DNA from: Betaproteobacteria bacterium
GTDB taxonomy: Bacteria > Pseudomonadota > Gammaproteobacteria > Burkholderiales > SG8-41
DNA: 64,000 bases
NCBI GenBank assembly: GCA_046339595.1
Contig: JBKDUF010000048.1
Location: 4,351 to 68,350 of the forward strand
Direction: 5' to 3'
A model generated the notes under the pieces. It was not told the DNA's origin and did not search any database. It saw only the letters and a program-made list of their open reading frames with translations. The translations under genes and the position numbers were made by a program. Position 1 is the first letter of the stretch, and each line of letters opens with the position of its first letter. Of this stretch, positions 1,065-23,693 are shown in pieces.

Positions 1065-2576
1065 ATGGACATCCTGCTCAGCCTGGGTCAGGGTTTCCTG
1101 GTGGCGCTGGAACCGATGAACCTGTTCTGGTGCTTCGTCGGCGTGTTCCTCGGCACGGCGGTGGGCGTGATGCCGGGCCTCGGCCCCGCGGCCACCATCG
1201 CGATGCTGCTGCCGCTCACTTTTCAGATGCCGCCGACGAGCGCGCTGATCATGCTTGCCGGCATCTATTACGGCGCCAAGTATGGCGGCTCGACCACGGC
1301 GATCCTGCTCAACGTGCCCGGCGAGTCGGCCTCGGTGGTGACCTGCCTCGACGGCTACCAGATGGCGCGCAAGGGCAGGGCGGGGGCAGCGCTGGGCATT
1401 GCCGCGATTTCCTCCTTCGTCGCCGGCACCGTTGGCGTCATCGGCCTGATGCTGCTCGCACCGCCGCTGGCGAAAATGGCGCTGTCCTTCAGTTCGCCCG
1501 AGTATTTCGCGCTGATGGTGCTGGGTCTGGCGATGGTGGTGCTGTTGGCCGGCGAGTCCATGGTCAAGGCGCTGCTGGCGATGCTGGTCGGGCTGTGGAT
1601 CGCGGGCATGGGCATTGACCTGTTCAGCGACACCTCGCGCTTCACCTTCGGCCTCTCCGAGCTGCTCGACGGCGTGGATTTCGTGATCGTCGCCATCGGC
1701 GTGTTCGCGCTGGGCGAGGTGCTCGGCAACATGGAGCGCCGCGGTGAAGGCACGCTGCTGCCGGTGCCCAAGGGCCTGCGCAACCTGCTGCCGACGATGG
1801 CCGAACTGAAGGCCTGCCGCTTCGCCTTCCTCAACGGTTCGGTGATCGGCTTCCTGATCGGCGTGCTGCCCGGCCCCGGCTCGACCATCGCCTCGTTCAT
1901 TTCCTACGGCATCGAGAAGGCGGTGTCGAAGCATCCGGAGAAATTCGGCACCGGCGTGCCCGAGGGCGTGGCCGCGCCGGAGGGCGCCAACAATTCCGAA
2001 ACCGGCGGCGCGTTGGTGCCGCTGCTGACGCTGGGCATCCCCGGATCGGGCACCACCGCGATCCTGCTCGCGGCCTTCGTGCTGTGGGGCCTGCGTCCCG
2101 GCCCGCTGATGATCCAGGACAACCCGCAGCTGTTCTGGGGGCTGGTGGCGAGCATGTATGTCGGCAACGTGATGCTGCTGGTGCTCAACCTGCCGCTGAT
2201 TCCGCTATTTGCGCAGATCCTGAAGCTGCGCGAATTCGTGCTGTATCCGGTCATTTTCGGCATCTCGGTGGTCGGCGTGTATGCGGTGTCGAACAGCCTG
2301 TTCGACTGCGGACTGCTCGCCGCCTTTGGCCTGCTGGGTTACCTGATGCAGCGGCTGAAGTTTCCGTCGGCGCCGCTGATCCTGGGGCTGGTGCTGGGTG
2401 ACGCGATGGAGCGCGCGCTGCGCCAGTCGCTGATGATGTCGCAGGGCGACCTCTCGATCCTGGTGTCGCGTCCGATCGCGGCGGGCATGCTGATCGTGGC
2501 CGCCGTGCTGCTGCTGATGCCGCTGTTCCGCCGGCTCAATTCGTGGCGGGTCAAGGCGATTGAAGAGAACGGCTGA
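1065..2576 (+). CDS. tctA: tripartite tricarboxylate transporter large permease (TctA family)
   Basis: ATG at 1065 (MDILLSLGQGF...) lies 2 nt after the tctB stop. It is a ~503-aa polytopic membrane protein with TctA-like motifs (GVMPGLGP, GIYYGAKYGGSTTAILLN). The 1032 start in the track looks like an overextension. Confidence 0.9.
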   Translation: MDILLSLGQGFLVALEPMNLFWCFVGVFLGTAVGVMPGLGPAATIAMLLPLTFQMPPTSALIMLAGIYYGAKYGGSTTAILLNVPGESASVVTCLDGYQMARKGRAGAALGIAAISSFVAGTVGVIGLMLLAPPLAKMALSFSSPEYFALMVLGLAMVVLLAGESMVKALLAMLVGLWIAGMGIDLFSDTSRFTFGLSELLDGVDFVIVAIGVFALGEVLGNMERRGEGTLLPVPKGLRNLLPTMAELKACRFAFLNGSVIGFLIGVLPGPGSTIASFISYGIEKAVSKHPEKFGTGVPEGVAAPEGANNSETGGALVPLLTLGIPGSGTTAILLAAFVLWGLRPGPLMIQDNPQLFWGLVASMYVGNVMLLVLNLPLIPLFAQILKLREFVLYPVIFGISVVGVYAVSNSLFDCGLLAAFGLLGYLMQRLKFPSAPLILGLVLGDAMERALRQSLMMSQGDLSILVSRPIAAGMLIVAAVLLLMPLFRRLNSWRVKAIEENG

Positions 2577-2618
2577 GGTTTCAAGGCCGGTGCAGGTTTA
2601 ACCCGAGGAGACACAATC

Positions 2619-3590
2619 ATGAAACTGCATTACACGATGCTCGCCGCGGCATTTGCGGCGACCCTGGCCGCGCCCGCGCTGGCCGAATTCAAGCCGAGCA
2701 AGCCGGTGGAGATGATCGTCCATACCGGCCCCGGCGGCGGCGCCGACGTGCTGGCGCGTTTCATCGCTCAGGTGATCGAGAAGGAAAATCTGGCGCCGGT
2801 GCGCTTCACCGTCAACAACCGTGATGGCGGCGGCGGCCTGCGCGCGATGGCCTATGTGGTCGAGAAAAAGGGCGATAACCACGCCATCGCGGTGTTCACC
2901 GGCAACTGGCTGACCAACCCGCTGACCCGCGCCGAAGCCAAGGTCACGGTGAAGGACATGACCCCGGTGGTACGGCTGGTGCTGGAGCCGGCGGTGATCG
3001 CGGTGAAAAGCGACGCGCCGTTCAAGACGCTGAAGGACTTCATCGACGCCGCCAAGAAGCAGCCCGGTGCGCTGAAGCAGTCCGGCGGTTCGACCACCAG
3101 CCGCGACAACGTGGTGCGCCAGCTGCTGATGCGCGAAACCGGATCGAACTGGGCCTACATTTCCTTCCCCGGCGGCGGCGAGCGCATTGCCGCGCTGCTC
3201 GGCGGCCACGTCAACATGATGGTGATCGAGCCGCAGGAAGCGGGCGAGCATATCAAGGCCGGCAACATGCGCGTGATCGCGCAGGTCGCTGACCGCCGCC
3301 TGTCGGCGTTCCCCAACGTGCCGACGATCAAGGAGGCGGGCTTTGACATCCCCAATGTGCCCCAGGTGCGCGGCATCCTGATGCCACCCGGTGTTTCGGC
3401 GGATGCGGTGGCCTACTACGAGAACCTGTTCGCGCGCCTGGTGAAGACCCCGACCTGGCGCAAGTATCTGGAAGAACAGCAGTTCGAGGACGGTTTCCAG
3501 CGCTCGGGCGATCTGGCCAAGTTCATGGACAGCTTCACCAGCCAGATGCGCGACATCCTGAACGAAGCCGGCGCCAAGGTGGTGCGCTGA
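2619..3590 (+). CDS. tctC: Bug/TctC family periplasmic tricarboxylate-binding receptor
   Basis: 323 aa with a signal peptide (MKLHYTMLAAAFAATLAAPALA) and the EFKPSKPVEMIV...GPGGGADV motif typical of the Bug family. Confidence 0.9.
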   Translation: MKLHYTMLAAAFAATLAAPALAEFKPSKPVEMIVHTGPGGGADVLARFIAQVIEKENLAPVRFTVNNRDGGGGLRAMAYVVEKKGDNHAIAVFTGNWLTNPLTRAEAKVTVKDMTPVVRLVLEPAVIAVKSDAPFKTLKDFIDAAKKQPGALKQSGGSTTSRDNVVRQLLMRETGSNWAYISFPGGGERIAALLGGHVNMMVIEPQEAGEHIKAGNMRVIAQVADRRLSAFPNVPTIKEAGFDIPNVPQVRGILMPPGVSADAVAYYENLFARLVKTPTWRKYLEEQQFEDGFQRSGDLAKFMDSFTSQMRDILNEAGAKVVR

Positions 3591-21326: not shown

Positions 21327-21686
21327 ATGGGATTGCAAAGACTGCATGTCGCCGCACGCTACAGCGAGGCGGCGATTTTCAACGGCGTGGTGTACCTGGC
21401 GGGCATGGTGCCGGAGTGCGAGGCGAAGGACATCCGCAGCCAGACTGCGGACGTGCTCCAGCAGATCGACACGCGTCTTGCTGAAGCCGGCAGCCACAAG
21501 GGCCTGATCCTGCGCACGCAGATTTTTCTCGCCGACCTGCAGGACTTCGCCGGCATGAACGAAGTCTGGGACGCCTGGGTCACTCCCGGCACCGCGCCGC
21601 CGCGCGCCACCGTGCAGGCTGCACTGACCAATCCGGACTGGAAGATCGAGATCGTGGTCACCGCGGCGCAGGCGGCGATGGCCTGA
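21327..21686 (+). CDS. RidA/YjgF family protein
   Basis: 119 aa with RATVQAAL near the C-terminus, typical of the YjgF/RidA fold. Confidence 0.85.
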   Translation: MGLQRLHVAARYSEAAIFNGVVYLAGMVPECEAKDIRSQTADVLQQIDTRLAEAGSHKGLILRTQIFLADLQDFAGMNEVWDAWVTPGTAPPRATVQAALTNPDWKIEIVVTAAQAAMA

Positions 21687-22143
21687 AGGAAACGCAGGCT
21701 GTTTTTCCCGGGGCAATAATCCTCAGAAATTCACATTCAAAGACGGCTCTTTCGGCCAGTAACTGCGGCGTGTATTTGCAGTTGCGTGGTGTCAGCCTCA
21801 GGTAATGTGTCAAGGCCATGTCCGCGCGCTGCTTTTTTTATGTTCGCAGATAGGGCGCGATAGCCTTCAGCAATTCCAGGGCTTGGCGGCTGCTGAGTGC
21901 GTAGGTGTGGCTCGGTGCGTGTCTGCTGCTGTAGGCGCGTTTGGCTGTAATCTTGCCAATGCCGGTCAGATCCCTGATGAAATGGAGTAGCGTGGGCTCG
22001 GTGCTGGCTACCGACACTACCAGGCGGCGGTGCTCGCCTTTGTGCTGCGCGGTCAGTGTGATCGTTCCTTCGCCGTCGATGATGCCGGCGATATAAGCAG
22101 TCGCCCAGTCCGGAAGCTGTTTCATGCGAGTGGCATCAGCCAT
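21658..22143 (-). pseudogene. free-standing single-motif LAGLIDADG homing endonuclease gene interrupted by TAA (21838..21840)
   Basis: From ATG 22143 it reads MADATRMKQLPDWATAYIAGIIDGEGTITL...LKAIAPYLRT, then TAA. The same frame then continues open as KKQRADMALTHYLRLTPRNCKYTPQLLAERAVFECEFLRI..., ending at TGA near 21658. The total of ~161 codons is I-CreI-sized. The TAA is one substitution away from Tyr. Confidence 0.6.
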
Positions 22144-22154
22144 GGATCGAGCAT

Positions 22155-22190
22155 AAAACAAAATGGCCGCCGGACGTGAATCCGGCAGCC
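22155..22190 (-). terminator. rho-independent terminator of ssrA
   Basis: On the minus strand, GGCUGCCGGA-UUCACG-UCCGGCGGCC is followed by AUUUUGUUUU, starting 11 nt after the tmRNA CCA. Confidence 0.75.
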
Positions 22191-22217
22191 ATCGGCCAAT
22201 TGGTGGAGGCGGCGGGA

Positions 22218-22486
22218 CAGCTTGTCCATGCCTTTCGGCACGGGCTGGACTATGCCTTCATCCCGGTTGCACGGGATGCGGAGCGTGTTATCCGCTTGCG
22301 CGAATCCTAGTATCTGCCCCCCGGATGCAACCCGGTCGGCAGATCTATGAGTCTCTACAGGGCAGGCCTGAAGTTGGCCCTCTTCCTACCCCTCGGCGTT
22401 GCCATGCCGTCCTTGGCGAGACGGTGCAGGTTTCACCGATGTGAGCTCCGTTTACATTCTGCTCTTGCGAACAGACGCGACCATTG
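22218..22486 (-). mobile_element. group I intron-like insert (269 nt, no ORF) in the tmRNA T-loop
   Basis: The 5' exon ends in U and the insert ends in G. A P1-like helix CGAU/GUCG places a U:G wobble at the junction. A P4-like pairing UCGGUG/CGCCGA and a P5-like hairpin CCGUC/GACGG are present, plus several GNRA-capped hairpins (GCAA, GAAA). The segments CGGUGAAACCU, AUGGCAACGCCGAG and GUAGAGACU resemble the Azoarcus tRNA-Ile IC3 intron as I recall it. Confidence 0.75.
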
Positions 22487-22710
22487 ATCGAACCCGCGTC
22501 CGCAAGCCCTCCACAGTCAGGACTACATGCTTAGCCTGGTTGTTTGGGTTTCGCCTCGCACCCGCCAGCCGGCAGGCTGATGTTTGGCTAGTCGCTTCGA
22601 CGGATCCGCAGGATTAAGCGACCAAACCCTGCAGAGAGGCTGATGTGAATGACGTTGCACCCCTTTCGGGGCCTGACCCATCAGCAGATCAGTGCAACGT
22701 CTAGCCGGTG

Positions 22711-22743
22711 TTAGGCGGCTAGAGAATAACGCTCGTCGTTGGC
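22711..22743 (-). other. tmRNA tag reading frame (ANDERYSLAA, then stop)
   Basis: Read directly from the minus strand. It resembles proteobacterial ANDE..ALAA degradation tags. Confidence 0.8.
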
Positions 22744-22886
22744 GTGTATAGATTTCCAGCGGATTTACAAGGTGACTGGACCTTGGCATGCCCTGTGCTG
22801 CTTTGTGACCCACGTCGAAACCAGGTCGCCCCCAATCTGACGCTTCGACATTATCGCACGGCAGGGGTTCCCTGCCGGATCGAGTG

Positions 22887-23693
22887 TCAGAGACGGCGGT
22901 TCTGCTGCTTGCGCACGGCAATCCGGGAGGACGGGCGCTGCGGGGCCGGTTTTTCGGCCAGGCTCTGGGCGGTTTCGCGTTGGGCGCGCAGCATGTTGGC
23001 AACATCCTGATGCAGCGTAGCCGGCAGATCGAGGCTGGCCAGCCGGTTCATCCGCGACCGGTAGTCGGGCAGGGTATGCAGCCCGAGCATGTAAGTGAGC
23101 AGGTCGTCCGTGGTCGGGGTCGCACCCGTGGTGCGCAGGAAATCGCGCGGGAAACTCGCGCTGACACCATTGGGCGAGGGAAACAGCAGGCGGATCACGA
23201 AATCGCCGCAACTGAGGCAGAAGGGTTGGTCGGGCTCGCGAAAAACGCAATATGGGGTTTCGCTGTCGACCCAGATTGCCACCCGGCGCACGAGATCCTG
23301 GCGCAGTGCCTGCATTTCCCGGGCGGTGCGGAAAGGACGCACGCCATGCAGGTGTTCCACCCGGTAGAGTGTGCCGCCGGCTTCGATCGCGCCCAACTTG
23401 ATGAAAGGGCTGACCATCACGCCAGCGCCGGGGAAGGACCAGGCAATGCGCTGATCTTCCATCTCGATGCCCACCTGGTCTTCGAGCGTGCCATCCGGGT
23501 AGGTGATCACGAAGTAATGCACATAGCCGGCCTGTCCACGGCCCGTGTTGCTGACTGCCAGCGGGCCTGCCGCGCGGTCTGCGGTGGCGTAGATCCTGGA
23601 GCCCGGTTTATGCGGCGCGGCTGCTGCGAGTGCAGGCAGCAGCGCGATCAGTGCGGCTGCAAGCAGGCCGGAAAACTGGGCAAGGTTTGGCAT
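22887..23693 (-). CDS. hypothetical secreted protein
   Basis: ATG 23693 gives a signal peptide (MPNLAQFSGLLAAALIALLPALAAAAP). It is ~268 aa and no family was recognised. Confidence 0.55.
   Translation of the reverse strand: MPNLAQFSGLLAAALIALLPALAAAAPHKPGSRIYATADRAAGPLAVSNTGRGQAGYVHYFVITYPDGTLEDQVGIEMEDQRIAWSFPGAGVMVSPFIKLGAIEAGGTLYRVEHLHGVRPFRTAREMQALRQDLVRRVAIWVDSETPYCVFREPDQPFCLSCGDFVIRLLFPSPNGVSASFPRDFLRTTGATPTTDDLLTYMLGLHTLPDYRSRMNRLASLDLPATLHQDVANMLRAQRETAQSLAEKPAPQRPSSRIAVRKQQNRRL

Follow-up and report, generated by a model that had tools for sequence, protein, structure and literature searches.

The subject of this analysis is an open reading frame (ORF) next to the transfer-messenger RNA (tmRNA) gene ssrA in a 64,000-nt stretch of DNA from a Betaproteobacteria bacterium (contig JBKDUF010000048.1, positions 4,351 to 68,350, assembly GCA_046339595.1), hereafter the window. 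The ssrA gene is interrupted by a group I intron that contains no ORF, and the ORF just past its 3' end is, with near certainty, the relic of a single-motif LAGLIDADG homing endonuclease gene of the I-CreI/I-MsoI type. The reading we favour, as probable though by no means secure, is that this ORF, inactivated only recently, belongs to a large clade of LAGLIDADG endonucleases encoded downstream of ssrA, whose intact members would spread by collaborative homing with the intron.

The ORF downstream of ssrA and its protein family

The ORF lies on the minus strand and starts at ATG 22143 (ATG 22125 and TTG 22161 are other possible starts), 58 nt past the CCA end of ssrA and 74 nt from the 3' splice site, outside the intron. 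Its product begins MADATRMKQLPDWATAYIAGIIDGEGTI, contains one LAGLIDADG motif (YIAGIIDGEGTI) and ends ...IAPYLRT, directly followed by a TAA at codon 102 (21840..21838). The 101 codons of this N-terminal part (21841..22143) encode the LAGLIDADG helix and an alpha-beta-beta-alpha-beta-beta-alpha core. Past the TAA, the frame stays open for 59 further sense codons (KKQRADMALTHYLRLTPRNCKYTPQLLAERAVFECEFLRIIAPGKTACVSFRPSPPAPR) up to a TGA at 21660..21658, which gives 161 codons in total. A preliminary description of this region had given these coordinates, distances and codon counts correctly, and the single motif and the position of the ORF outside the intron are likewise confirmed on the sequence.

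A database search with the read-through translation retrieved 505 homologous proteins at E≤0.001. The best of these are intact: P0001 (155 amino acids, 95% identical), encoded at locus L081, and P0002 (161 amino acids, 81% identical), encoded at locus L082. Against a hidden Markov model (HMM) of 120 homologues, the read-through translation scores 212.8 bits (E 9.5e-68) over profile positions 1-144, continuously across the stop. The Pfam models suggested for checking the family match the window marginally and the family clearly. LAGLIDADG_3 gives 22.7 bits for the first 101 amino acids of the window (cut-off 22.5) and 21.4 bits for the read-through, and LAGLIDADG_1 gives 21.1 bits (cut-off 23.1); at E≤0.001, the two models match 112 and 97 of the 120 family members, respectively.

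Sequence comparisons revealed that conservation extends on both sides of the stop. In the window motif YIAGIIDGEG, residues D23, G24 and G26 are invariant both in an alignment of 17 sequences and among the 120 homologues, and the catalytic acidic residue E25 is invariant in the former and conserved in at least 90% of the latter. The position of the TAA (21838..21840) is occupied by Tyr in at least 90% of the 120 homologues and, in the 17-sequence alignment, in all homologues bar one with His; codon 102 is TAT in L081 and TAC in L082, in agreement with the earlier remark that the TAA is one substitution away from Tyr. None of the aligned homologues ends at ...YLRT, and the 17-sequence alignment contains invariant residues well past the stop (Y114, T118, P119, R120, N121, Y124, R132 and F135).

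The predicted structure points to the same family. A sequence search of the Protein Data Bank (PDB) returned I-MsoI first, with an alignment that runs through PYLR(T/I)xKKQ, and the bI3 maturase second. The AlphaFold2 model of the intact orthologue P0001 (predicted local distance difference test score 91.1, predicted template modelling score 0.82) has a single-domain alpha-beta-beta-alpha-beta-beta-alpha core, two C-terminal helices (96-111 and 120-135) and a disordered tail. In a Foldseek search with this model, the top 40 matches were I-CreI, I-MsoI and I-CvuI, with template modelling (TM) scores of 0.65-0.72 over ~145 residues. The enzymes of the family are presumably homodimeric.

By the P0001 model, the window stop falls just 5' of the codons for both C-terminal helices. 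The alignment of 17 sequences, the codon comparison and the model together assign these two helices and a short tail to post-stop codons 103-153 (21687..21837), which contain the Cys substitutions G122C, R137C and G150C. The remainder of the open frame (21658..21686), consisting of the final eight codons RPSPPAPR (21684..21661) and the TGA, is host DNA and corresponds to the antisense of the 3' end of a convergent RidA gene (21327..21686, plus strand; Pfam Ribonuc_L-PSP, E 7e-29), with which the endonuclease frame overlaps by 29 nt (21658..21686). The RPSPPAPR codons are not endonuclease sequence, because homology to an empty-site allele, L085, resumes exactly at window position 21686; the low confidence of the modelled tail of P0001 is consistent with their lying outside the inserted element. 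The earlier proposal that the post-stop sequence represents C-terminal helices thus stands for the two helices and has to be given up for the last eight codons. The 29-nt overlap with RidA is also present in L081 and L082, and therefore the native stop codon of the endonuclease was lost before the three lineages split. The tail of the frame (ttcaggccatcgccgcctgcgcc, ~21690-21668) was separately considered as a decayed, displaced ssrA 3' end; its alignment score was 9 (p = 0.37 versus shuffles), and the empty-site allele L085 shows it to be the RidA C-terminus in antisense.

Linkage to ssrA introns and the proposed homing mechanism

In the window, ssrA is encoded on the minus strand. Its 5' exon (22487..22833) extends from GGGGGCG to the T-loop (...GGGTTCGAU), after which the Rfam tmRNA match (RF00023; 22825..22486, 139 bits) breaks off; ARAGORN made no call for the interrupted gene in the window. 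The 269-nt intron (22218..22486) is followed by a 3' exon (22201..22217; tcccgccgcctccacca) that comprises the 3' strands of the T-stem and the acceptor stem and ACCA. The splice junctions read GGGTTCGAT/caatgg...aagctg/TCCCGCC (slashes mark the splice sites), with U at -1 and a terminal intron G, and lie between T-loop nucleotides 6 and 7. Rfam Intron_gpI aligns to the intron from P3 to P9 (22.4 bits, E 0.0012, below the gathering score). Intron homologues are found at >60 loci, and the RNAalifold consensus of 56 introns comprises 58 pairs, 36 of which show compensatory changes, with the splice-site U.G pair (P1) present in 56/56. In-silico removal of the intron restores the T-arm exactly as in L085. 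Judged by sequence and covariation, the interruption is a well-supported tmRNA T-loop group I intron at position 7. It has no endonuclease ORF of its own, and the only endonuclease homologue begins past the CCA end.

The L085 allele, found via the neighboring RlmJ gene (82% identical), contains an uninterrupted tmRNA gene (197 bits), whose 3' region reads ...GGACGCGGGTTCGATTCCCGCCGCCTCCACCA..., and lacks both the intron and the endonuclease gene. In this allele, a 49-nt spacer, which contains a different terminator, separates the tmRNA gene from the stop codon of RidA, which is convergent with it. BLAST aligns the window to L085 in three blocks, namely the 5' exon (94% identical), the 17-nt 3' exon (100%, L085 3004-3020) and the region from window position 21686, the RidA stop, onward (85%). 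Therefore, relative to this allele, the window has the 269-nt intron and a 514-nt segment (22200..21687) that replaces the 49-nt spacer. This segment comprises the endonuclease gene and, between ssrA and the gene, an intrinsic terminator identified by a terminator scan (22162..22193; a hairpin of 14 pairs, then TTGTTTT), which is not homologous to the terminator of L085. Three other loci found via RlmJ (L083, L084 and L086) have no tmRNA within 3.5 kb, contain island genes or another context, and are unusable as empty sites.

The association of the two elements was surveyed in both directions. In the forward survey, which used one genome per GTDB species, a relative of the endonuclease was found in 336 genomes; the best 80 loci were fetched, and 73 of these had enough upstream sequence to be assessed. 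An intron-containing ssrA lies directly upstream in 66/73 loci, with the 3' exon a median of 63 nt before the start codon and a T-run in 62% of these spacers. In the remaining loci, the gene follows an intron-less ssrA (two loci, L056 and L057), resides inside the ssrA intron (one locus, L063), lies tail-to-tail with an intron-less tmRNA gene in candidate-phyla-radiation (CPR) bacteria (two loci, L027 and L060), follows a partial ssrA with intron and 3' exon but no 5' exon (one locus, L065), or has no detected tmRNA (one locus, L014). A tmRNA gene or part of one thus adjoins the endonuclease gene in 72/73 loci. The tail-to-tail arrangement is also seen in L033, a CPR locus with a short upstream flank.

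In the reverse survey, metagenome contigs were scanned for the intron core motif at the J8/7-P7 junction, TGAAGGMATAGTCCRGCC, which yielded at least 120 matching stretches; the following counts hold among the 120 matches listed. The sequence then runs into a tmRNA 3' exon in 94 cases, 82 of them with enough downstream sequence. An endonuclease gene is located downstream in 55/82 (39 intact-looking, ~11 disrupted, 4 off the contig end and 2 on the opposite strand). The other 27 have no endonuclease gene and show ordinary host genes near the CCA end; their six-frame translations contained no endonuclease remnant in a profile HMM search at E<0.05. The co-occurrence of intron and ORF at ssrA, which the preliminary description had suggested surveying, is thus evident from both directions and is complemented by the empty site in L085.

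Presence and absence of the gene can also be compared between similar alleles, as Steroidobacteraceae-type loci with the intron share a post-CCA hairpin and a downstream amidase gene whether or not they carry the endonuclease gene. Genomes with a family member include those of Gamma- and Betaproteobacteria, Nitrospira, Anaerolineae, Fraserbacteria and CPR bacteria, and among the cultured carriers are Thioalkalivibrio denitrificans ALJD, Methylophaga sulfidovorans DSM 11578 and Seongchinamella unica GH4-78; no homologues were found in the plasmid collection. Pairwise identities of tmRNA, intron and endonuclease are weakly correlated (Spearman 0.19 for tmRNA versus endonuclease), and the closest endonuclease pairs always occur in related hosts. 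Judged by the taxon range, transfer across phyla is plausible. In two metagenome loci (L138 and L194), the sequence ~90 nt past the intron-core motif is not a tmRNA 3' exon but a tRNA-like T-arm (GTCGGTTCGATTCCGAC), and these may represent a related intron in a tRNA gene.

Several features of the family bear on its mode of mobility. In 16/78 loci, a displaced intron-less ssrA 3' end occurs within 110 nt past the endonuclease stop, each beating all 200 shuffles. The T-arm is complete in about half of them, in most cases with at least one mismatch, and the others are retained only from the T-loop onward. The displaced copies imply that the inserted unit brought its own 3' exon, with its junction no further downstream than the intron site. 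The intron-less, endonuclease-linked alleles L056 and L057 have altered T-arms (GCCGG TTCGAGA CCGGC and GCGAG...CTCGC, respectively), and each carries a canonical-like displaced ssrA copy after the endonuclease gene. Furthermore, the best match to the endonuclease among phages (37% identity, 92% coverage) is found in Sphingobium phage Lacusarx, directly beside a permuted tmRNA gene with an unusual T-loop (AGCGTTA versus TTCGATT; CGGGG AGCGTTA CCCCG). Because displaced copies, altered-T-arm alleles and the Lacusarx T-loop all point there, T-arm DNA is the candidate target.

We propose that, in intact relatives, the enzyme would cut intron-less ssrA in or near the T-arm DNA. The genome that encodes it would be protected by the ORF-less intron, which splits the target site, or more rarely by T-arm substitutions. 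Repair of the break from a donor with intron and endonuclease would then co-convert the intron, the 17-nt 3' exon, the terminator and the endonuclease gene ~60 nt further on, that is, collaborative (trans) homing. In some lineages, the displaced intron-less ssrA 3' end may supply the right-hand homology for entry into unrelated flanks. In the window, the element is fixed and the endonuclease has begun to decay. Homing of this kind is the probable mechanism; the cleavage target, the basis of immunity and the co-conversion are those that the sequence comparisons suggest. A more general version, which we hold tentatively and would place a little below even chances, is that intron, replacement 3' exon with terminator, free-standing endonuclease and sometimes a displaced 3' end form an unrecognised, widespread bacterial cassette, in which the intron or a mutated T-arm would confer immunity and the displaced copy would act as a portable homology arm for entry into tmRNA genes of unrelated bacteria.

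A number of observations weigh against homing by this route. One third of the intron loci lack the endonuclease gene, and the intron therefore persists without it. The window itself contains no displaced ssrA 3' exon, as judged by local alignment versus shuffles and by the comparison with L085. In L008 (2927-2958), a canonical 29-nt intron-less copy of T-arm and acceptor (CGCGGGTTCGATTCCCGCCGCCTCCACCA) lies 4 nt past an intact-looking endonuclease gene; this copy should be cut and is therefore hard to fit with a target of ~11 bp on either side of the intron site. Homodimeric enzymes often have even-centred pseudo-palindromic sites; a search for an even-centred 22-bp pseudo-palindrome at the intron-less junction gave at best 5/11 positions, below shuffled sequences, which makes this search uninformative about the site. 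In addition, purifying selection on the gene was kept over the ~12% nucleotide divergence between L081 and L082, an upkeep that would not be expected in any obvious way for a purely selfish element that is already fixed. Finally, the terminator and the usual lack of a Shine-Dalgarno sequence leave the expression of the endonuclease genes unexplained.

Alternatively, the endonuclease would home alone (intronless homing) on the ssrA 3' end or its downstream flank, with the intron as an independent, hitch-hiking co-resident. In agreement with this explanation, the gene is found beside intron-less tmRNA genes in L056, L057, the CPR loci L027, L033 and L060, and phage Lacusarx, intron-only alleles and alleles with intron and endonuclease differ by a clean indel downstream of the shared hairpin, and L008 tolerates its canonical T-arm copy beside an intact gene. 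However, ~90% of the endonuclease loci carry the intron and two thirds of the intron loci carry the endonuclease, compared with a reported 4% of tmRNA introns with an internal gene; the intron-less alleles linked to an endonuclease all have non-canonical T-arms; and the displaced copies begin inside the T-arm, which places the recombination junctions at the intron site or upstream of it rather than past the CCA. We therefore regard homing of the endonuclease alone as unlikely and retain collaborative homing with the intron as the favoured mechanism.

Relatives of the gene also occur in other settings. In Lacusarx (L208, NC_041927.1, 2447-3335), the endonuclease ORF, whose annotation as 'HNH endonuclease' is a misnomer, overlaps the start of the tmRNA gene, and a tRNA-like 3' end lies just upstream. 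In Gordonia phage WilliamBoone (L209, MK376956.1, 1867-2507), a 37%-identical relative lies within a tRNA cluster, where it is flanked by two tRNA-Ser genes and overlaps the second of them, which resembles the 'gene, endonuclease, duplicated gene end' layout at ssrA; 19 Gordonia phage records match. The phage relatives beside tRNA-Ser and tmRNA genes are hints of a wider LAGLIDADG clade targeting tRNA-like genes. In L019 (4433-4553), a third, 121-nt intron-less tmRNA 3' piece (88% identical) is present ~1.5 kb downstream of the endonuclease gene, which suggests an extra island insertion or a remnant at the same ssrA.

Decay of the window copy

The two loci with intact genes allow the changes in the window to be polarised. 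L081 is syntenic with the window and 98.3% identical over 2,358 nt, and the L082 contig is 87.9% identical. Between L081 and L082, the genes show 26 non-synonymous and 45 synonymous codon differences, a ratio that indicates purifying selection on the full 161-codon frame. By comparison with L082, six derived non-synonymous changes are assigned to the window lineage (A15T, V70A, Y102stop, G122C, R137C and G150C), of which G122C hits an invariant Gly (PRNGKY to PRNCKY), together with one clearly derived synonymous change. The contrast of 6:1 with 26:45 gives a Fisher p of 0.017, or 0.18 when three synonymous sites of ambiguous origin are counted for the window. Compared with L081, the endonuclease gene is the most diverged segment (3.1%, versus 2.2% in the intron, 0.3% in RidA and 0% in the ssrA 5' exon). 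These comparisons make decay of the window copy nearly certain, and it is most plausibly a young, recently inactivated pseudogene. The TAT to TAA change at codon 102 removes the two C-terminal helices, and intron and tmRNA are intact in the window. Other family members, in L016 and L023, contain separate in-frame stops, and pseudogenes are therefore common in the family.

The preliminary description had also read the missing Shine-Dalgarno sequence as a sign of degeneration. The premature stop holds as such a sign and is joined by the additional Cys changes and the fastest divergence in the region; the missing Shine-Dalgarno sequence does not, since such a sequence is present in only 26% of 66 mostly intact homologues and its absence in the window therefore says nothing about decay. 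A spacer of ~60 nt with a terminator is likewise the family norm. A promoter scan found no sigma-70-like promoter anywhere in 21600-23000; because none was found even upstream of ssrA, the scan is silent on expression.

Two readings would assign a function to the gene or its product. The first is that the gene still works in the window, with the TAA being an assembly or sequencing error or being read through, or with the 101-amino-acid product being active. The single stop, the absence of frameshifts and the intact downstream frame, 95% identical to the intact orthologue, would fit such a reading. Yet three more non-conservative Cys substitutions are present, one of them at the invariant Gly, the endonuclease gene is the segment that differs most from L081, and the in-frame stops in L016 and L023 make pseudogenes common in the family. 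Truncation would moreover drop two confidently modelled helices, and the title of PDB entry 2o7m describes the C-terminal loop of I-CreI as essential for binding and cleavage. A functional window gene is thus very improbable, and inactivation by the stop remains the preferred interpretation. The second, that the protein is or has turned into a trans-acting maturase or another splicing factor beneficial to the host and kept by host-level selection rather than homing, could draw on the purifying selection between the two intact orthologues, on the existence of LAGLIDADG maturases, with the bI3 maturase as the second-best PDB sequence match, and on the consistent position of the gene beside the intron, but we consider it hardly credible given that 27/82 intron-bearing loci have no trace of the gene, that ~11 more loci and the window have disrupted copies with tmRNA and intron intact, that the catalytic acidic residue is conserved, and that the fold is closest to those of endonucleases (I-CreI and I-MsoI) rather than to maturases.

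Significance and comparison with known systems

The window copy itself is an ordinary pseudogene, and its value lies in giving entry to the family and to a conserved partnership. With a relative of the endonuclease in at least 336 species-level genomes, the scale differs from the two phages behind collaborative homing (PMC3984707). If the more general cassette reading is correct, the family would constitute the first large population of collaborative-homing elements known in nature from cellular chromosomes, and the scarcity of endonuclease genes within tmRNA introns would be accounted for. Since intact, disrupted, gene-lost, empty-site and intron-internal (L063) states are all present, the homing cycle and the move of an endonuclease into an intron become open to comparative study. 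The enzymes may also provide new I-CreI-like specificities against a very conserved sequence.

In the public records covered here, these endonuclease genes frequently lack a name, bear a wrong one ('HNH endonuclease' or 'DNA methyltransferase' in phages) or carry N-terminal extensions. As an annotation artefact, gene callers place some of the starts too far upstream, so that the predicted ORF takes in the terminator, the tmRNA 3' exon and the end of the intron. For example, the N-terminus MDKLSRRLHH of P0025, a 205-amino-acid protein from a Casimicrobiaceae metagenome-assembled genome (MAG), is the translation of ...atggacaagctg/tcccgccgcctccacca (slash, splice site), and an N-terminal extension of this type corresponds to window positions 22122..22241. 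P0070 is a related miscalling and has the JGI name 'O-phosphoseryl-tRNA(Cys) synthetase'.

The closest structural counterparts are I-CreI, I-MsoI and I-CvuI, homodimeric enzymes of algal rRNA introns. They share with the ssrA-linked enzyme the fold (TM ~0.7), a length of ~150 amino acids, a single motif with a conserved acidic residue and an alignable PYLR(T/I)xKKQ segment. Sequence identity is only ~20-25%, however, and I-MsoI has a Lys (in PYLRIKKKQ) where the ssrA-linked family has Tyr. Furthermore, these enzymes are encoded within introns, whereas the ssrA-linked enzyme is free-standing.

Group I introns in the tmRNA T-loop were reportedly described by Williams in 2002. T-loop introns at position 7 are now known from 21 phyla, and the low share of LAGLIDADG genes, found only inside 36/883 tmRNA introns (4.1%), in P7.1 or after P9, has been remarked upon (PMC11915505). 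The intron described here agrees with them in the gene, the T-loop position 7, the U at -1 and the terminal G. In contrast, in this subfamily the endonuclease gene lies outside the intron, past the CCA and the terminator, in about two thirds of the loci; L063 is the one locus with the same clade inside the intron. There (a Candidatus Fraserbacteria MAG, 2465-3202), the ORF begins ~25 nt past the 5' splice site and extends into the intron core, unlike the genes that have been reported in P7.1 or after P9. The 2025 tmRNA database paper makes no mention of flanking genes (PMC11915505), and a search of the full-text literature, subscription journals not covered, found no description of a LAGLIDADG gene downstream of ssrA. 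The partner of this intron subfamily sits just outside the annotated gene, which marks a gap in the tmRNA literature.

Integrase-driven islands (Williams 2003, as cited in PMC11915505) insert at the same part of the tmRNA gene, and a displaced, attR-like direct repeat of its 3' end is left behind. The ssrA element differs in that it has no integrase, inserts ~0.8 kb and has a homing endonuclease as its mobility gene. Islands of the former type are probably present in L083 (1214-3060) and L084 (645-3072), whose RlmJ genes are 90% and 86% identical, respectively. At the position of the window's ssrA, they have island-type genes beside RidA (Fic/DUF4172 with an HTH_17 excisionase-like gene, or AbiEii with DUF6088), and a remnant consisting of CCACCCCACCACCA plus terminator, which would be the attR-like fragment, adjoins RidA.

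Free-standing endonuclease genes of fungal mitochondria, such as that at Allomyces atp6, are inserted at gene 3' ends together with a replacement 3' end. As in 16/78 of the ssrA loci, the element brings its own 3' end and the resident copy is displaced downstream. The difference is that these elements reside in mitochondrial protein-coding genes, involve no intron and often belong to other endonuclease families.

Collaborative homing was revealed by work on two phages and has been proposed as a route of mobile intron formation (2014 review, PMC3984707). Among the described cases, F-CphI is paired with the psbA intron of cyanophage S-PM2, and another involves the DNA-polymerase intron of T7-like phages (Bonocora and Shub; PMC3984707); F-CphI is Endo VII-like (PMC6083498), and a related case of trans homing is mobE with I-TevIII in T4 (PMC2790892). 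The ssrA pair resembles these systems in that the endonuclease gene is located outside the intron and close to it. The other phage cases are reported to use HNH enzymes. Unlike the phage systems, the ssrA pair resides on bacterial chromosomes of several phyla, its host gene encodes an RNA (tmRNA), its enzyme is a LAGLIDADG protein where the phages use other families, and some of its cassettes contain a duplicated 3' exon. Taken together, these comparisons support the view that the arrangement at ssrA represents a chromosomal, LAGLIDADG-based variant of collaborative homing, a partnership so far described only in phages.

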